From: a bacterium UBP6_UBA1177
GTDB lineage: Bacteria > UBP6 > UBA1177
DNA: 60,043 nt
Reading direction: 5' to 3'
Assembly (NCBI GenBank): GCA_002310995.1
Contig: DBYV01000044.1
Location: forward strand, 25,635 to 85,677
In this document: positions 52,301 to 60,043 of the stretch, piece by piece
How positions within the stretch are numbered: position 1 is the stretch's first letter
Layout: every line of letters starts with the position of its first letter
Notes under the pieces: model-generated
Told to the model about the DNA's origin: nothing
Seen by the model: the letters and a program-made list of their open reading frames with translations, nothing else
Databases searched by the model: none
Translations under genes and position numbers: made by a program

Positions 52301-52711
52301 TCTTCAGGAACAAAAGTAATTTGTGTTCACGGCAGCCGGATGGCTCACTCTGTTTTTGTATCAGAAACAGTGGATGGGGATGTCGTCGTGACCGATCTTA
52401 CTTCAGGTCTGATGTGGCAGAAAAAAGGCGATTTCTCAGGCAATTGGAGTACGGCACTGAAATATTGCAAAGATCTGGATTATGCCGGATATTCCGATTG
52501 GAGGCTGCCGAATAAAAACGAACTCGCTTCACTGCTGAATTACGACAGGCGGATGTCTCCGTATTCTGATTTTCCGGACATGTCGCGATACAGTGAGGGA
52601 AACCGGTTTTTGTCCTCCACCAATAACGACGGTCCGGCATGGAATGTGGATTTTTATTCAGGTATAGTGAGTAACGATAACAACAGATCAAATATCAGGT
52701 GTGTGAGATAG
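49352..52711 (+). CDS. Large lipoprotein with six DUF1566 domains and two EGF-like units (paralog of the 45759 gene)
   Basis: Signal ending VSGC; shared GExYGECYP...C...G..CD N-terminal module; three DUF1566 pairs. Confidence 0.88.
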   Translation: MKKILFYMLLFLAVLFLATVSGCSKNNGKKRGEIYGECYPNKTCNKGLICDTEENVCIQDPDFEKDDEDRISSDMDSDETDIDLTDDNNTTNDSDNEAEPVEPDENNITGKFTLGNICTGQTFCYDTASWMSCPVFGDDFYGQDAQYAEAGTCKPQNFTVKTVSEQNMVVDNNTGLEWQEKISTETYTFKEAENYCSESVYGGYSDWRVPSPQELLTIVDSSRFNPATNSIFTNMPDDKEIYLWTSKESRYFVVAEGLYSYYGNNANSYNVLCVRGRKMPEALFTSETVKGDIVVTDSTTDLIWQKDSGYTGSWKEALKYCEDLDYAGYTTWRLPNKNEAASLLNLNRAEAPYSDFPDMPVDGFWSSTSYGEGELAWWADFYSGRVFRSSKDENFAVRCVTGGNGVKTANPCDPNPCESLSNSTGECRTISEKLYSCGCADGYYWWDSELKCTDKKPLSLGEICTGQTKCYDYPEQVECSEMTNAKAYGQDAQYAGWGVCEPQNFTVKTVEGQKIVVDNNTGLKWMKSPSSETHHWIEAQVYCDNLNLSGYAGYDRGWRVPTPQELLTIVDNSNYYPVLDSSFSKLNGNGCLWTSQQCSVYVENSEEVYRFENSSGKIVPTIKQDNCNALCVNGKEMGKAVLMSQTVDGDVVVTDSTTGLIWQKEYGKQDWTGALRYCEELVYAGRADWRLPNKNELASLLNYDKTEPPYSDFPDTPSGSDSNFRTSTPYQDSGTRYPNFWVVYFEDGSILPNQSTTLSVRCVTGGRDLKFGNPCDPNPCGNLANSTGECTSLSETRYLCGCSDGYYWWDAENGCVDTKPPSLAEICTGLTSCYNDNHQIITCPSSEEDDFFGQDAQYAEAGVCRQHSFTVKTISGQNIIMDNNTGLEWQQEITGGYVFEDALNYCNTLNYAGYSSGWRVPSPQELLTIVDYSNYRPTIDTAIFTNMTAMTTEDHQLWTSKSRDGSVARVFNPVNGSIKSREKSSGTKVICVHGSRMAHSVFVSETVDGDVVVTDLTSGLMWQKKGDFSGNWSTALKYCKDLDYAGYSDWRLPNKNELASLLNYDRRMSPYSDFPDMSRYSEGNRFLSSTNNDGPAWNVDFYSGIVSNDNNRSNIRCVR

Positions 52712-52833
52712 CGTAAACACTTTCTGCAAAATAATTCCCCCAAAATTTAATAAGTAAAAAAATTACTATTTTTTTTCAGATGGCTATAATACGCCGTTTT
52801 GTTTTTTACTAACCGTTTTTTTAGGAGTTTGAA

Positions 52834-54255
52834 ATGGCAGAAAAGAAAGCGGCAAAGAAAGCCGAAAAATTCGATCCGAAGACCCTGACCTATTCCAAAA
52901 AATCAGGCTGGGACGGTATCTCCGAAGCTAAGATGAAAGAGATCATGGACTTCGCTGAAGGTTACAAAAAATTCCTCACTGACGCTAAAACCGAGCGTGA
53001 AGCTGTCAGCACGATCTTCGAACTTGCAAAAGCGAAAGGCTACAAAAACATCGAAAACGCAAAAGCAACCGACAAGAAGATTTTCATCAACTTCGACAAC
53101 GTTGCATGCGTTCTCGCTGAAATCAATCACACCGATTTCGAAAAAGGCTGGCTCATGGTCGGTTCACATATCGACACGCCGAGACTCGACCTCAAAGGCT
53201 ATCCGCTTTACGAGAAAGAGGATATGGCTTACTTCAAAACGCACTACTACGGTGGAATCAAAAAATATCAGTGGGTTACGAGAGCTCTCGCACTTCACGG
53301 CGTTGTAATCACCGAAGCAGGCAAAACGGTTAACGTTGTTGTCGGCGAAGACGAAAACGATCCTGTTTTTACAATCAACGACCTTCTTCCGCACCTCGCT
53401 CAGGAGCAGATGGAAAAAGGAGCAAGAAAGGTAATCGAAGGCGAGAATATGAACATTCTCATCGGCTCGATTCCTTATTCCTTCAAATATGACAAAGACA
53501 GCGTAAAACTCGCTATCCTTGATTTCCTCTACAAAAAATACGGCTTCAAAGAGGAAGATTTCGTTTCTGCCGAGCTTCAGCTTGTTCCGGCTGGAAAGGC
53601 AAGAGATGTCGGCTTCGACAGAAGTTTTGTCGGTGCTCACGGCCAGGACGACAGAATCTGCGCTTACAGTGCGTTGCAGGCAATTTTTGACGCAGGCAAA
53701 ACGAAAGAGAACAAGTTTGCGATGTTCTTCGACAAAGAAGAAATCGGCTCGAAAGGTAACTCCGGCGCAAACTCCAACATTCTTGAAAGAGCTGTCAACA
53801 AACTTATAAACCTTTACGGAAAAGGCGATTACAATACACTCATCAACTCTCTTGCAAACAGTAAGTTCCTCAGCTCCGACGTCAATGCGGGTGTCGAACC
53901 TGAATGGGCAGGCGCTTTTGAACCGATGAACGCAGGAAAGGTCGGCTGGGGCGTATGCCTTACAAAGTTCACCGGCGTAGGCGGCAAAGGCAACTCCAAC
54001 GAAGCACATGCTGAATTTGTTGCAAAATGCAGAGCTGCTTTCAACAAAGACGACGCACGCTGGCAGACAGCAGAACTCGGAAGAGTAGACCTTGGCGGCG
54101 GCGGCACAATCGCTATGTTCATCGCTGAATACGGAATGCAGGTTCTTGATGTCGGCACACCGATCCTTTCGATGCACAGCCCGTTTGAAGTTGCTTCGAA
54201 AGCTGACCTTTACAACACCTATCTTTCCTACAAAGCATTTTACAAATATCTTTAA
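52834..54255 (+). CDS. M18-family aminopeptidase
   Basis: SHIDTPR, QDDR, KEEIGS, SSDV, SMHSPFE zinc-ligand motifs. Confidence 0.92.
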   Translation: MAEKKAAKKAEKFDPKTLTYSKKSGWDGISEAKMKEIMDFAEGYKKFLTDAKTEREAVSTIFELAKAKGYKNIENAKATDKKIFINFDNVACVLAEINHTDFEKGWLMVGSHIDTPRLDLKGYPLYEKEDMAYFKTHYYGGIKKYQWVTRALALHGVVITEAGKTVNVVVGEDENDPVFTINDLLPHLAQEQMEKGARKVIEGENMNILIGSIPYSFKYDKDSVKLAILDFLYKKYGFKEEDFVSAELQLVPAGKARDVGFDRSFVGAHGQDDRICAYSALQAIFDAGKTKENKFAMFFDKEEIGSKGNSGANSNILERAVNKLINLYGKGDYNTLINSLANSKFLSSDVNAGVEPEWAGAFEPMNAGKVGWGVCLTKFTGVGGKGNSNEAHAEFVAKCRAAFNKDDARWQTAELGRVDLGGGGTIAMFIAEYGMQVLDVGTPILSMHSPFEVASKADLYNTYLSYKAFYKYL

Positions 54256-54272
54256 CGGCTAACGGTTTTTTC

Positions 54273-54920
54273 ATGCAAAAAATTCTTATATTTTTCATCG
54301 TTTTTCTACAGTTTTTCTCTGTTTTTGCGGCAGACGATTCTGCCAATAAAACGCAGAATGCAGAGAAGTGGAAATTCGTTGGTGAAGAGGACGGGCTTAA
54401 ACTTTACGAGCGCAACCACGAAGGTTCCGATATCAAAGAGGTCAAGGCGGTTGTCACTTATCAGGGAACAATTCAGGAAGCTGTCGATATTATGTTCGAC
54501 AGGCTTAAACATCCGCAGATATTCAAATATATAACATTTTCGGATGTTCTCAAAAAGAATGATAAATGCGACTGGTCTTATAACCAGATTTCGGTTCCGG
54601 TGGCTTCCAACCGCGATTACTACGTCAAATCTTGCAGAGTTGACAACAAAGACGGTTCTGTTTCGGTAACGTGGGTTCCGTTCGACGATCCGAAATATCC
54701 TGTGACCGACAAATTTGTCCGCGTGGCTGACAACAAGGGCTTCTACAAATTTACGCAGGTTGAGCCTGACAAAATAAAAGTTGATTACTACATTTACAAC
54801 GATCCGGGCGGCTCTCTTCCCGTTTTTGTCAAGAACATTGCGGCAAGACAAGCCGTTAAGGATACGTTGTGGACGCTCCATAAAGAAATAATGAAGCGCC
54901 GTGCGGCATCGAAAAAATAG
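54273..54920 (+). CDS. Secreted START-domain (lipid-binding) protein
   Basis: Signal peptide, WKFVGEEDGLKLY, PVASNRDY, DPGGSLP. Confidence 0.8.
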   Translation: MQKILIFFIVFLQFFSVFAADDSANKTQNAEKWKFVGEEDGLKLYERNHEGSDIKEVKAVVTYQGTIQEAVDIMFDRLKHPQIFKYITFSDVLKKNDKCDWSYNQISVPVASNRDYYVKSCRVDNKDGSVSVTWVPFDDPKYPVTDKFVRVADNKGFYKFTQVEPDKIKVDYYIYNDPGGSLPVFVKNIAARQAVKDTLWTLHKEIMKRRAASKK

Positions 54921-54959
54921 TCATCGCTTATTCAATCGTTTTATTAGTTCGGAGACGAT

Positions 54960-55274
54960 ATGTCTGATTTCTTAACAAAAAAAACGCCCAAGCGTTCGAT
55001 TGAAACAAATCTCAAACTGAAAGAACCCGATATGTACAAAGTCGTGATGCTGAACGACAACTACACAACAATGGAGTTTGTTGTCGAAATCCTGATCGAC
55101 ATTTTCGGAAAAAGTGAGGCTGAAGCCCGCAAAATAATGCTCGCAGTTCACAAACAGGGGCGCGGAGTGGCCGGAATTTACGTCTACGACATCGCTGTTT
55201 CCAAAATCGCGCAGGTTGACGAAGCGGCGAAAAAGAAAGGGTTCCCGCTCAAATGTATCGTTGAAAAGGAGTAA
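54960..55274 (+). CDS. clpS: ClpS adaptor
   Basis: YKVVMLNDNYTTMEFVV, MLAVHKQGRG, FPL. Confidence 0.96.
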   Translation: MSDFLTKKTPKRSIETNLKLKEPDMYKVVMLNDNYTTMEFVVEILIDIFGKSEAEARKIMLAVHKQGRGVAGIYVYDIAVSKIAQVDEAAKKKGFPLKCIVEKE

Positions 55275-55276
55275 CT

Positions 55277-57529
55277 ATGGCGGAAAAAGAGAATATGTCG
55301 TTGCCGTTTTCATTTGAAGTGGCTAAAATTTTCAGCATGGCAATCGAAGATGCGACCGACAACAAAGACGAGTTCGTGACTCCCGAACATCTTCTGTTTC
55401 AACTGCTTTTCAACAGGAAAGTAGTCGGACTTCTCGAACATTTTGATGTCGATGTCTCGGAAATGAGGCAGAATGTCAGGGAATATCTCGAAAAATATGT
55501 TCCCAAAAGCTCAAAAAACGGGAGAGTCGTTCCGTCCGAATACCTGAATATGTGCCTTCTCGATGCGGCGAACAACGTTTTCGGCTCGCAGAGGACTCGT
55601 GTCGAAGTGACAGATCTGATCGTAGCGATCTATGACCTCGGTGACAAATCGTATTCCTCAAGTCTGCTCAAGGCTAACAACATCAAAAGATACGACCTTC
55701 TGAGCGCGATCGCACACGGCGGATTTTCCGAAACTGAAAAACCGGAAGAGACTGAAAATGTTGAAACAACTCCTGAAGAGGCAGAAAAATTACCTTCCAC
55801 GCTTGAACTTTTTACGGTGGATCTTACTGAAAAAGCCCGTTTGGGAGAGCTTGATCCGATAATTGGTCGAGAAGAGATCATCGAGCGGACTATCCAGATC
55901 CTTCTCAGACGCAAAAAGTGCAATCCTGTTCACATCGGTGATCCCGGAGTAGGCAAAACCGCGATAACGGAAGGTCTGGCTCAGAGAATCGCGCGGAATG
56001 AAGTTCCTGCGCAGCTTTCAGGATATCGCATTCTTTCGCTCAACATTTCGCGTCTTATCAGCGAATGCCGCTTTATGGGTGATTTGGAGCGGACGATGAA
56101 CAAACTTGTATCTGCCTTGAAACAGGAAGAAAAAATCATTGTTTTTATTGATGAAATTCACAATCTTGTCGGGGCTGGGAGCGCGGGAAATTCGTCAATT
56201 GATGCGGCCAACATCCTGAAACCGGTTCTTGAAGAAGGAACTATAAAATTTATCGGCGCGACTACTGCTTCAGAATACAGAAAGTTTTTCGAAAAGGATT
56301 CGGCTCTTTCAAGAAGATTTCAGAAGATAAATGTTCCGGAGCCTTCGAAAGATGAAACTTTCATGATTTTAAAGAGCTTGGCTGAAAAATATGAGTCTTT
56401 TCACAAGGTTAAATACAGTGACGAGGCTCTCCGTGCGGCTGTGGAACTTTCCTCGCTTTACATCACCGACCGTTTTCTGCCGGACAAGGCGATAGATCTG
56501 ATCGATGAGGCCGGAGCGGCTTGTAACATGCAGGCTAAGAAAATAAAGGTTGTAAAGCCGGAGCATATTGAAAAAGTCACCGCTTTTCTCACCGGAAAGA
56601 AGGAAAAAACTGTAAATTCTGACGGAATGAAGCAGCTTAAAGGGCTCGAAACGGCTCTTTCAACTGAGATTTTTGGTCAGAACGAGGCGATTTCCGAAAT
56701 TGTGAGAGCGATAAAAAAGAGTTATGCAGGGTTCAAAAATCCCGAAAAACCGGTTGCATCGTTCCTTTTCGTCGGTTCTACCGGAGTAGGCAAAACTGAG
56801 CTCGCCCGTGTTTTAGCCGACAAAATGGAAATGCCGCTGATACGTTTCGACATGAGCGAATATCAGGAAAAACACACAGTTTCAAAGCTTTTCGGCGCGC
56901 CTCCCGGATATGTCGGATATGAAGAAGGCGGACTTTTGACTGAAGCGATAAGAAAGCAGCCGACTTCAGTTCTTCTTCTTGATGAAATCGAAAAAGCACA
57001 TGCAGACATTTACAATTCGCTTCTTCAGATCATGGATTATGCGACTCTGACTGACAATGCAGGACGTAAGGCCAACTTAAAAAACGTAATAATTATAATG
57101 ACTTCTAATGCCGGAAGCAAAGATGCCGCAAAAAAACAGGTAGGCTTTGAATCCCATTCGGAAAATACTTCCGCTTTCAAAGAAGCCGTAAAAAATACGT
57201 TTTCGCCTGAGTTTTTGAACAGGCTTGACCACATTGTTTACTTCTCACACATAACGCCTGAAATCGTTAAGAAAATAGTTAAAAAGAATGTCTCGGTGCT
57301 TGCAGAAAGGCTCGTTTCCAAAAATATTGAACTTTCAATCACCGAATCCGCTGTCGCACACTTGGCTGAACTCGGTTTTTCGACGGTTTTCGGCGCAAGA
57401 GAGACGGCGAGAGTTGTCGATAAAGAGCTTGAAAATCTTCTTCTTGACGAAATTCTTTTCGGAAAATCGAAAAACGGCGGAAAAATAAAAATCGATTTCA
57501 AAAACGGAAAACTTATAACTGTTAAATAG
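55277..57529 (+). CDS. clpA: ATP-dependent Clp protease ATPase ClpA
   Basis: Clp N-domain (TPEHLL), two AAA modules (GDPGVGKT; GSTGVGKTE), FDMSEY, PPGYVG; directly after clpS. Confidence 0.93.
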   Translation: MAEKENMSLPFSFEVAKIFSMAIEDATDNKDEFVTPEHLLFQLLFNRKVVGLLEHFDVDVSEMRQNVREYLEKYVPKSSKNGRVVPSEYLNMCLLDAANNVFGSQRTRVEVTDLIVAIYDLGDKSYSSSLLKANNIKRYDLLSAIAHGGFSETEKPEETENVETTPEEAEKLPSTLELFTVDLTEKARLGELDPIIGREEIIERTIQILLRRKKCNPVHIGDPGVGKTAITEGLAQRIARNEVPAQLSGYRILSLNISRLISECRFMGDLERTMNKLVSALKQEEKIIVFIDEIHNLVGAGSAGNSSIDAANILKPVLEEGTIKFIGATTASEYRKFFEKDSALSRRFQKINVPEPSKDETFMILKSLAEKYESFHKVKYSDEALRAAVELSSLYITDRFLPDKAIDLIDEAGAACNMQAKKIKVVKPEHIEKVTAFLTGKKEKTVNSDGMKQLKGLETALSTEIFGQNEAISEIVRAIKKSYAGFKNPEKPVASFLFVGSTGVGKTELARVLADKMEMPLIRFDMSEYQEKHTVSKLFGAPPGYVGYEEGGLLTEAIRKQPTSVLLLDEIEKAHADIYNSLLQIMDYATLTDNAGRKANLKNVIIIMTSNAGSKDAAKKQVGFESHSENTSAFKEAVKNTFSPEFLNRLDHIVYFSHITPEIVKKIVKKNVSVLAERLVSKNIELSITESAVAHLAELGFSTVFGARETARVVDKELENLLLDEILFGKSKNGGKIKIDFKNGKLITVK

Positions 57530-57539
57530 AGGTAACATT

Positions 57540-58244
57540 ATGAAATTATTGAAAAATTCTTTCGTATTCGCAATTTGTGCGCTTATGCTTCTTTCATGTG
57601 CTACGGCTTCTGTAAAAGAGGAAAAGGCTGCCGCGCAGGGAAGCGATGACGGTTCGATGACCGCAGAAGAGATTGCCTACATCAATAATCCTGAGGAAAG
57701 GCATCTTCTCCAGAATGATGTCGAAAAGGATAACGAGATTTTGAGAAAGGTTTCGATTCCTGCAAAACTCGGCGGCGAGGGCTACGATGTTCTTGAAAAT
57801 TATATGAAAGAAGCTATCGGAACCGGAGTAGGGATCGCGGCTCCGCAAGTCGGAATAAACAGGCGTCTCATCATGGTTCAGAGATTCGACAAAGAAGGAA
57901 AACCTTTTGAATTTTATTACAACGCTGTGATTAAAGAAAAAAGAGGTGAAAAGGTCGTCGGATGGGAAGGCTGCCTCTCGATTCCGGCAGGTTACGGACA
58001 GGTCGAAAGGTGGCAGGATATCGATGTCGAATACGATGTCATGAACGGCAACAAACTGGAGCGCAAAGTCGAACGCATCCAAGGTTTTACTGCTGTTATT
58101 TTTCAACACGAAACGGATCATTTAAATGGTGTTCTCTTCATCGACATAAAGACTGATGATCCTCTGATGACGGCCGAAGAATACAAAGAAATGAGAATGA
58201 AAGAAAAGGCTGAAAAAGAAGCACAGGAAAAGAAAGACGAATAA
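57540..58244 (+). CDS. def: Peptide deformylase with N-terminal lipoprotein-like signal
   Basis: GVGIAAPQVG, EGCLS, QHETDH all intact; N-terminus MKLLKNSFVFAICALMLLSC. Confidence 0.88.
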   Translation: MKLLKNSFVFAICALMLLSCATASVKEEKAAAQGSDDGSMTAEEIAYINNPEERHLLQNDVEKDNEILRKVSIPAKLGGEGYDVLENYMKEAIGTGVGIAAPQVGINRRLIMVQRFDKEGKPFEFYYNAVIKEKRGEKVVGWEGCLSIPAGYGQVERWQDIDVEYDVMNGNKLERKVERIQGFTAVIFQHETDHLNGVLFIDIKTDDPLMTAEEYKEMRMKEKAEKEAQEKKDE

Positions 58245-58264
58245 TTTGCGGTTTTAAAAGTTCT

Positions 58265-58975
58265 ATGAATCTGCTTTTACTCAATCGAAGCGATCTGATT
58301 GCTGAAAATAAAGCCGAGATTTTCGGTGAAAAAGTCAGGCACCTTAACGAAATTCTGAAGCTGAATCCCGGAAATGAAGTGAGAGTCGGAATTTTGAACG
58401 GAAAAAAAGGAAAAGCTGTGATTGAAAAAATTGAAACAGAAAAAGCAGTTCTTTCTTTTGAATTAAATGAGGATCCGTTCCCAAAAATCCCTCTTTCCGT
58501 CATCGTTGCACTTGCCAGACCGAAGGTTCTTTCTCGCCTCATTTCAGACCTCGTTTCCTACGGAGTCGAAGGAATAGAAATTATCCAGACCTATTTTGGA
58601 GACAAAGGATATTGGGAAAACGAATTGTTTACAGAATTTGGACTTGCCGAAGCTGTAGGAAAAGGGCTTGAACAGAGCATGGACACAATTCCGCCGAAAA
58701 TAAATTTAGTTAAGCGTTTTGGCCCGTATTCGAACGATATTCTGCCTGAATATCCAGCAAGATCAAACTGTTACATTGCTTTACCCGGAGATTTCAAAAA
58801 AATCGGCGAAATAGAGAAGGGCAAATCCAATATTATCGCGATCGGTCCCGAAAGAGGCTTCACCAAATACGAAGCAAACCAATTCATAAAAGCTGGTTTC
58901 CAACCCGTTTCCCTCGGAAACAGGATCATCAGGACCGAAGCCGCGGCCCATGCCTGCGCTGCACATTTTATTTAA
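58265..58975 (+). CDS. rsmE: 16S rRNA m3U1498 methyltransferase RsmE
   Basis: RHLNEILK, IGPERGF, LGNRIIRTEAA SPOUT motifs. Confidence 0.88.
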   Translation: MNLLLLNRSDLIAENKAEIFGEKVRHLNEILKLNPGNEVRVGILNGKKGKAVIEKIETEKAVLSFELNEDPFPKIPLSVIVALARPKVLSRLISDLVSYGVEGIEIIQTYFGDKGYWENELFTEFGLAEAVGKGLEQSMDTIPPKINLVKRFGPYSNDILPEYPARSNCYIALPGDFKKIGEIEKGKSNIIAIGPERGFTKYEANQFIKAGFQPVSLGNRIIRTEAAAHACAAHFI

Positions 58976-58982
58976 AGGTAGA

Positions 58983-59816
58983 TTATTTCTTATTCACCGG
59001 ACAGACTCTGACGCAGTCGCCGCATTTGATGCATTCGATCGAATTGACTTCTTTTACGGGGTCGATCCCCATGGGGCAGTGTTTTTTGCACGCTGAACAA
59101 GAGACGCATTTATTTTGATTCAATTTGATTTGTAAAAGTGAGACACGGTTAAAAAACCCCAAAATGAGTCCGAGAGGGCAGATGTAGCGGCAGAAAGCTC
59201 TTTGTTCTCTCATAACATAAATGACGAAGAAAATCGTGAGAGCGGTTTTCCACCAGAAAGTGAGTCCGATCGAAGCCCGCAAACCGGAATTTGCGGCGAT
59301 TATAGGGATGCCTGCGACGATAAGTCCGGAGGGACAAACGTATGCGCAGAAGCCCTGAGCGAGCCCGAAAGCGGGAATAAGCAAAACAAAGAAAAATAAG
59401 TTAAACCATTTTATACAGCGGAATTTCTGCGGCAATTTTGCTTCGATATTTTTCCAAGGTGAAATCGAATAAAGAATTTCCTGGAAAAATCCGAACGGAC
59501 AGACGTAAGCACAGGTTGCTCTTCCGAGTATTGCACCTGCTGCTGAGAGTGTTCCAAGTGCGAAAAACGGAATCATGGAGGCATATTTTATGACATACTG
59601 CAAAGTTCCGAGCGGACATCCGAAAGCCATCGACGGACAGCTGTAACAGTGGAGTCCGGGAGCGCAGAAAGTCTTTGTCGGGCCGTTGTAAGGTTTGCCT
59701 GAAAGGAAGTTGGAGATAAACGGGTTCTGTATTATAAGAAAGAATAATTGTATCAAATTACGTTTTAAACCTATGTTTTTTAATTTGTTTAAAAAAGAAG
59801 ACGTGTTTTTTGTCAT
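58983..59816 (-). CDS. 4Fe-4S binding membrane protein (NapH/RdxA-like)
   Basis: CYSCP, CAYVCPFG, FCRYICPLG, CVSCSACKKHCP, CIKCGDCVRVCP. Confidence 0.9.
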   Translation of the reverse strand: MTKNTSSFLNKLKNIGLKRNLIQLFFLIIQNPFISNFLSGKPYNGPTKTFCAPGLHCYSCPSMAFGCPLGTLQYVIKYASMIPFFALGTLSAAGAILGRATCAYVCPFGFFQEILYSISPWKNIEAKLPQKFRCIKWFNLFFFVLLIPAFGLAQGFCAYVCPSGLIVAGIPIIAANSGLRASIGLTFWWKTALTIFFVIYVMREQRAFCRYICPLGLILGFFNRVSLLQIKLNQNKCVSCSACKKHCPMGIDPVKEVNSIECIKCGDCVRVCPVNKK

Positions 59817-60037
59817 TCTGCCTCCTTTTTCTCTTTAATGCCGAATTTTTCGAGAATCTTTTCAAAGATGTTTTCATCGTATAAACCGATACAGCTCATA
59901 CAGATATTTTTGCCTGCAGCTTTGACTAAATCGGTCTCTTTTGTGCCGTATTCATCGATTTCGGCGGTAAAAGTACGGGCGATGAAAAGTGCCGAAACAA
60001 TGAGAATTATGAGAACGGCGATGATTCTTTTTTTCAT
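59813..60037 (-). CDS. CD1871A-like CxxC small membrane protein
   Basis: N-terminal transmembrane helix, KNICMSCIG; overlaps the start of the 4Fe-4S gene. Confidence 0.7.
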   Translation of the reverse strand: MKKRIIAVLIILIVSALFIARTFTAEIDEYGTKETDLVKAAGKNICMSCIGLYDENIFEKILEKFGIKEKKEAE

Positions 60038-60043
60038 TTTTTC

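Follow-up and report, generated by a model that had tools for sequence, protein, structure and literature searches.

Textbooks place peptide deformylase (PDF), a target of antibiotics, in the cytoplasm and on the ribosome; in Escherichia coli, the enzyme docks there through the basic C-terminal helix that is typical of canonical PDFs. In Porphyromonas gingivalis, periplasmic dipeptidyl peptidases and an acylpeptidyl oligopeptidase prepare peptides, including N-blocked ones, for di- and tripeptide uptake. A full-text literature search, in which subscription journals lie mostly outside the coverage and absence is therefore not proof, turned up no account of a PDF that is exported, periplasmic, a lipoprotein or dependent on Tat (twin-arginine translocation).

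The locus considered here lies in 60,043 nucleotides of the genome of the bacterium UBP6_UBA1177 (contig DBYV01000044.1, positions 25,635 to 85,677), a stretch referred to below as the window. At 57540..58244 on the + strand, which carries all the window features described here, a gene of 234 codons plus stop encodes a PDF identified by PF01327, by an AlphaFold2 model and by Foldseek. By all sequence and structure criteria tested, its product is a PDF, yet not canonical Def: it begins with a lipoprotein-type signal and belongs to a separate clade of signal-bearing PDFs, referred to as the exported clade. It is fairly probable that the window PDF is an exported and catalytically competent paralogue. 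The reading that accounts best for the whole locus, and which is considered quite probable, is that the window PDF is a Sec-exported, signal peptidase II (SPII)-processed and lipid-anchored deformylase of free periplasmic N-formyl peptides, which it likely unblocks.

Catalytic domain and export signal

The catalytic domain (amino acids, aa, 66-202) matches PF01327 with 112.3 bits against a gathering cut-off of 22.8. All three PDF motifs, reported as intact in an earlier reading made from the sequence alone (the sequence-only reading), are conserved in relatives. Motif 1, GVGIAAPQ (aa 96-103; 57825..57848), supplies Gln103; motif 2, EGCLS (aa 143-147), supplies the metal ligand Cys145 and is preceded by Trp142, which is specific to the clade and invariant in its alignment (57963..57980 with the tryptophan); motif 3, HETDH (aa 190-194; 58107..58121), supplies His190, Glu191 and His194. 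These five residues, which we take to correspond to Gln50, Cys90, His132, Glu133 and His136 of E. coli Def (used for numbering only), are invariant, together with the hydrophobic residues of the S1' pocket, in 30/30 aligned clade members, and the S1' residues of the exported clade are those of a Met-specific PDF. The AlphaFold2 model, with a predicted local distance difference test score (pLDDT) of 91.5, has the PDF fold according to Foldseek, with template modelling (TM) scores of 0.84-0.88, a root-mean-square deviation of ~2.2 A and an E-value of 1.5e-13 to Thermotoga maritima 1lme. Among solved structures, the best sequence match is the cyanophage PDF 3uwa (139.6 bits), and the same PDB sequence search found no solved structure within the exported clade.

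Ahead of this domain, the N-terminus MKLLKNSFVFAICALMLLSC|ATAS satisfies a PROSITE PS51257-type lipobox rule, defined by a basic n-region, an uncharged h-region, a lipobox [LVI..][..][AGS]C and a cysteine at position 15-35, here Cys20. The signal peptide (aa 1-19; 57540..57596) consists of the n-region MKLLK, an h-region and the lipobox residues L-L-S, and it is helical in the model (residues 3-20). Cys20 (57597..57599), predicted to be lipidated and to head the mature protein, is kept in 30/30 aligned homologues at identities down to 41%. It is followed by a low-complexity tether (aa 21-40; 57600..57659), modelled as disordered with a pLDDT of 53-72 and a minimum at aa 27-29, whose length and sequence vary among homologues. 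Both the basic-hydrophobic-LLSC signal resembling other lipoproteins of this genome and the linker behind it, as described in the sequence-only reading, were thus recovered: of the genome's 1792 open reading frames (ORFs) of >=100 aa, 223 (12.4%) also satisfy this rule, and xxSC is the commonest form.

The significance of the lipobox comes from its conservation across homologues rather than from a single hit. When the window protein is counted with its 120 best database homologues, 103/121 pass the rule, and most of the homologues that fail it are gene calls with missing ends or Bacteroidales forms with unusual lipoboxes. In genomes of the same order, 30/30 recovered loci retain an in-frame, ATG-initiated signal. 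Homologues in Bacteroidota carry either a lipobox or a signal peptidase I (SPI)-type '...A|Q' signal, as in Chryseobacterium, Elizabethkingia, Flavobacterium and Sphingobacterium, and some representatives combine a twin-arginine motif with a lipobox, such as P0127 (SRRSILGLG...AGC). Among the best 148 cluster representatives, 120 bear a signal, of which 66 have a strict lipobox and 54 another hydrophobic N-terminal signal; most of the 28 without one are fragments or fusions. The type of signal therefore varies while its presence persists, as expected of a truly exported protein.

The genome also encodes lipoprotein-processing enzymes, with one LspA (PF01252, 115.8 bits) and four Lgt proteins (PF01790, 73-221 bits). 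The Lgt paralogues lie on separate contigs (G000 C58:38369-39166, C35:30799-31569, C39:24037-24801 and C16:4721-5413); the one on C35 adjoins lspA, and the one on C58 lies ~1.8 kb upstream of the ychF-def locus that holds the canonical gene.

A clade separate from canonical Def

In the genome, an assembly of 2.31 Mb in 67 contigs that is 84% complete, there are exactly two PF01327 matches. The second is a canonical, signal-less def of 196 aa behind ychF (G000:C58:40996-41487; PF01327, 173.5 bits), so that the cytoplasmic paralogue for which the sequence-only reading had advised a check is present, and the idea that the window PDF is the only def gene was rejected. The two proteins also separate in NCBIfam, where the window PDF scores 100.5 bits and canonical def 154.8 bits against the TIGR00079 equivalog cut-off of 103.95, and 101.2 and 169.5 bits, respectively, against the NF001159 cut-off of 125. 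fmt is present as well.

This duality extends to relatives. A profile built from 30 signal-bearing PDFs gave a bimodal distribution in related genomes, with 237-348 bits for the exported type as against 45-117 bits for canonical def, and a high-scoring gene occurs in 34/36 genomes and 13/14 genera of the order, of which the exported-type PDF is a core gene. Three genomes from another family of the phylum have canonical def only. Canonical def is present in nearly all relatives, and in 12/12 tested carriers of the exported type from Bacteroidota and Myxococcota. In a scan covering one genome per species, the clade signature (WEGCLS[VI]P, IFQHE.DH) was found mainly in Bacteroidota, including Bacteroidales, Alistipes, Flavobacteriaceae, Sphingobacterium, Chryseobacterium and Saprospiraceae, and also in metagenome-assembled genomes of Sumerlaeota and Myxococcota. 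The exported profile matches 544 clusters at E <= 1e-30 in a library clustered at 50% identity, where PDF clusters at E <= 1e-10 number 21,672. The phylogeny of signal-bearing PDFs, proposed as a check by the sequence-only reading, yields a distinct clade: when the core domains of 54 exported and 31 canonical PDFs from the same genomes were placed in a maximum-likelihood tree, one branch with 100/100 support divided the two types. Taken together, the sequences point to an old, distinct clade of predicted exported PDFs that coexists with the ribosome-associated Def.

The clade is further characterized by structural hallmarks at both ends of the domain. Behind the signal and the tether comes an N-terminal helix that canonical PDFs lack (57660..57683; motif [LF][TS]xxExxxI with invariant Glu44), modelled as a helix over residues 42-48 with a pLDDT of ~97. 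At the other end, a Glu/Lys-rich C-terminal helix (58173..58241; helix 212-233 in the model) gives the tail after HETDH a net charge of -4, compared by the same count with +6 for the canonical def of this genome and +6 for E. coli Def. Averaged over 148 clade members, the tail behind HExxH has a net charge of -2.1, as against +5.7 over 29 canonical PDFs (Mann-Whitney p = 2e-15), and the clade has lost the basic, ribosome-binding C-terminal helix.

Variants occur within the clade. In Weeksellaceae (Chryseobacterium and Elizabethkingia; L088, L091, L100 and L112) and in P0216, EGDLS replaces EGCLS with motifs 1 and 3 intact; in these aerobic Weeksellaceae, the aspartate in place of the cysteine ligand may constitute an oxidation-resistant metal site. 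Tandem two-domain forms (L084 from Bacteroidales, 382 aa, and the P0082-P0107 group, ~385 aa) combine a degenerate first domain, with SIAAPE, NETCATLP and HAITH in place of HExxH, with an intact second domain. Fusions to a further domain of ~200 aa are found in Sphingobacterium (L092, L098 and L105; 408 aa), where the extra part is N-terminal, and in one Bacteroidales protein (L047; 417 aa), where it is C-terminal. Within the window's order, one genome contains a third, weak PDF-like match of 65.7 bits inside a 505-aa open frame (G005:C8:53990-54565, L163).

Gene order around the window deformylase

In the window, the PDF gene stands fifth in a string of six + strand genes spanning 52834-58975, with intergenic gaps of 17, 39, 2, 10 and 20 nt. 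The string opens with an M18 aminopeptidase gene (52834..54255; PF02127, 285 bits), followed by a gene whose START-like product bears an SPI-type signal, MQKILIFFIVFLQFFSVFA|ADD (54273..54920; PF01852, 24.3 bits against a cut-off of 22). Next come clpS, encoding the 104-aa N-degron adaptor (54960..55274; PF02617, 112.7 bits), and clpA, encoding the 750-aa AAA+ unfoldase (55277..57529; AAA_2 with 221 bits, AAA, AAA_lid_9 and ClpB_D2-small). The clpA stop codon TAG occupies 57527-57529 and the PDF gene starts with ATG at 57540, which leaves a gap of exactly 10 nt, the distance already given in the sequence-only reading. A Shine-Dalgarno sequence, GAGGT (57529..57533), read directly from the sequence, overlaps the clpA stop and lies 6 nt before the PDF start. 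Downstream, rsmE, the gene for a 16S rRNA methyltransferase (58265..58975; PF04452, 87 bits), follows 20 nt 3' of the PDF gene. The START-like gene, between the M18 aminopeptidase gene and clpS, is also kept in a syntenic relative (L005).

A promoter and terminator scan of 52600-60043 returned counts not above those of shuffled sequences and was uninformative, and it found no terminator-like site between clpA and the PDF gene. Because of the 10-nt gap and of the missing terminator-like site, co-transcription of clpA and the PDF gene is likely. In the syntenic relative, the gene for the Leu/Phe-tRNA-protein transferase (aat, PF03588; L005:9958-10653) lies ~3.3 kb downstream of the PDF gene; the window's contig ends before that point, and by this synteny aat probably lies near clpS and clpA in the window genome too, with the PDF gene, rsmE and others interleaved among these N-degron genes.

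Outside the genus, this arrangement dissolves. Within the window's genus, clpA stands directly upstream of the PDF gene at 8 loci and is absent from that position at 4, a further 3 loci being too short, and elsewhere in the order, in other genera and families, the adjacency occurs at 0/15 loci; among the loci examined in other phyla, none was found. The more widely conserved neighbour is rsmE, which adjoins the PDF gene in four genera (g1-g4). A 66%-identical homologue retains rsmE and not clpA, a 50%-identical one lies beside pepF and an MFS gene, and a 41%-identical one lies behind a GGDEF gene. In Flavobacteriaceae, the exported PDF gene follows mrdA-rodA, with gldC downstream and, in a few cases, ruvX as a neighbour. 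Guilt by association was attempted across the clade and rejected, as it gave no functional hint and all recurrences were local to lineages. The gene 4 nt upstream of the PDF gene in one diverged lineage of the genus encodes an 820-aa Clp ATPase (L007:3534-5996), with no clpS called before it and a PAPS reductase gene upstream.

Proposed role and alternatives

We infer the export, lipidation, enzymatic activity, substrate and physiological role of the window PDF from its sequence and from that of its relatives. In the proposed mechanism, the protein would be made as a Sec-dependent prolipoprotein, Lgt would lipid-modify Cys20 and LspA would cleave the signal, so that the mature enzyme would be tethered to the membrane by ~20 flexible residues, facing the periplasm or possibly exposed at the surface. 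Its substrates at that site would be free N-formylmethionyl (fMet) peptides, from which it would remove the formyl group by hydrolysis, rather than nascent chains. Such peptides, released by lysed neighbouring bacteria (abundant in a rumen) or possibly by the cell itself, would be unblocked, and envelope exopeptidases and a di/tripeptide (POT) transporter, for which a free amino terminus is needed, would then process them. Both S9 peptidases of the genome carry lipoprotein signals, and a PTR2/POT transporter is present. An OppA-type binding protein had also been considered as the beneficiary of unblocking and was rejected, since the genome has no PF00496 match, and the proposal was moved to the S9 peptidases and the POT transporter. 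Nutrient recovery is the most plausible reading of the role, although the specific assignment to nutritional unblocking of peptides is tentative and somewhat less likely to be right than wrong. With similar reserve, it is suggested that diderms of several phyla, Bacteroidota and Myxococcota among them, may possess a dedicated step of extracytoplasmic N-terminal processing, in which a lipid-anchored or soluble periplasmic PDF deformylates free fMet-peptides for exopeptidases and transporters.

Several points weigh against this proposal. A lipobox in a single sequence is only moderately informative, as 12% of the genome's ORFs pass the rule, and the signal call stands on a PROSITE-type rule together with conservation. 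The window PDF falls just under the NCBIfam def equivalog cut-off (100.5 against 103.95 bits). Sec export implies that the metal would have to be loaded outside the cytoplasm, and we know of no established natural N-formyl substrate in the periplasm. No OppA-type binding protein (PF00496) was found in the genome, whose assembly is 84% complete. Additionally, the neighbourhoods are heterogeneous, with 155 Pfam families across 137 flanking genes of 80 loci and none of them dominant.

The alternatives differ in whether they deny export, tie the enzyme to its neighbours or assign it another target. An enzyme that stays in the cytoplasm would result if the start had been mis-called and the protein began at Met40 as a second cytoplasmic PDF. 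Met40 is present and retained in the closest relatives (DDGSMT), but it lacks a Shine-Dalgarno sequence, whereas Met1 has GAGGT at optimal spacing; position 40 is a leucine in relatives of <=55% identity, the 39 codons upstream are open with the signal kept at all 30 loci of the order, and the acidic C-terminal tail also counts against an ordinary cytoplasmic PDF starting there. This downstream start was rejected as extremely improbable, and the start at the signal, as taken in the sequence-only reading, is retained. Functional coupling to ClpS and ClpA, in which co-transcription would reflect a shared pathway of fMet or N-degron control, draws on the 10-nt gap without a terminator-like site, on the M18 aminopeptidase gene upstream and the transferase gene ~3.3 kb downstream in the syntenic relative, and on the persistence of the clpA-PDF adjacency in diverged lineages of the genus (L007, L024 and L035), where the PDFs are ~50% and the ClpA proteins ~60% identical. 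However, the predicted compartments of the PDF and of ClpS/ClpA differ, clpA is missing at 4/12 informative loci of the genus, at all 15 loci outside it and in other phyla, rsmE is the stabler neighbour, and the operon also holds unrelated genes, namely those for the START-like exported protein and rsmE. Coupling was therefore rejected on the phyletic pattern as very unlikely; given this pattern and the difference in predicted compartment, the position behind clpS-clpA is read as a matter of gene-order history at the level of the genus, not of function. Of the co-transcription with N-degron machinery put forward by the sequence-only reading, the likely shared transcript thus stands and the functional link does not (0/15 outside the genus).

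Two further alternatives accept export and differ in the target. The exported PDF might destroy N-formyl chemoattractants and so mask the bacterium from host formyl-peptide receptors, and it is established that deformylation abolishes FPR1 agonism; many carriers of the clade are gut or rumen bacteria. The clade is, however, found equally in marine Flavobacteriaceae, in Saprospiraceae, in soil Sphingobacterium and Chryseobacterium and in Sumerlaeota and Myxococcota from sediment, a commensal of the rumen lumen, the presumed habitat here, would meet few neutrophils, and the clade neighbourhoods show no link to virulence or host-interaction genes. Given how often these proteins occur in free-living bacteria of the sea, soil and sediment, masking is an unlikely general role for them. 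Slightly less improbable, though still doubtful, is a role against other formylated targets or as a decoy, in which the enzyme would detoxify N-formylated antimicrobial peptides (leaderless bacteriocins or gramicidin-type peptides) or sequester PDF inhibitors such as actinonin on their way to the cytoplasm. Such a role would suit an active site kept intact in a ribosome-free compartment, and also the status of a core gene in dense microbial communities; on the other side, the S1' pocket remains that of a Met-specific PDF, linkage to immunity, ABC-export or resistance genes is absent, and the literature search found no published precedent. Of the exported deformylase envisaged by the sequence-only reading, the export of an intact enzyme is therefore the part favoured by sequence and evolutionary evidence, whereas the tie to N-degrons and masking as a general role are not upheld.

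The preferred reading, a lipid-anchored deformylase of free N-formyl peptides, has consequences beyond this locus. A conserved PDF clade behind an export signal, with 544 clusters at 50% identity, a core position in its order and a wide distribution in Bacteroidota, implies that N-formyl peptides form a periplasmic or environmental pool whose processing is worthwhile to bacteria. The clade is relevant to how rumen and gut communities feed on peptides, to the amount of formyl-peptide signal that gut bacteria show to their hosts, and to how def copy number and the action of PDF inhibitors are read in these phyla, whose genes of this type are currently annotated plainly as 'peptide deformylase'. 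If the reading is true, the exported PDF would, as a side effect, reduce the amount of formyl peptides that the cell gives off, and it would be the first enzyme of N-terminal protein maturation shown to act elsewhere than in the cytoplasm or an organelle.

Among described enzymes, canonical type 1B Def (EC 3.5.1.88), as in E. coli, T. maritima (1LME) and Leptospira (1SZZ), shares with the window PDF the PF01327 domain, the three motifs, the Cys/His/His ligands, the catalytic Glu and Gln and the fold. The window PDF differs from it in adding a lipoprotein signal, a tether, an N-terminal helix and Trp142, in its acidic, Glu/Lys-rich tail in place of the basic ribosome-binding helix, and in its separate clade (100/100) under the NCBIfam equivalog cut-off. 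The organellar PDFs, such as Arabidopsis PDF1A (1ZXZ) and PDF1B (3M6O) and the human mitochondrial enzyme, are known to carry a cleavable N-terminal targeting sequence and likewise leave the compartment in which they are synthesized, and organellar structures are among the structure matches of the window PDF. Organellar PDFs nevertheless still act on nascent chains, as organelle ribosomes start with fMet, whereas the periplasm has no translation. The minimal PDF of Synechococcus phage S-SSM7 (3UWA) likewise lacks a long basic C-terminal helix, but it is cytoplasmic and has no signal peptide, N-terminal helix or Glu/Lys tail, all of which the window PDF possesses. Finally, the envelope exopeptidase systems of Bacteroidota offer an analogous layout, given the lipoprotein S9 peptidases and the POT transporter of the window genome; the peptide-unblocking enzymes of those systems are unrelated to PDF in family and chemistry, and the likeness is that of a working analogy.

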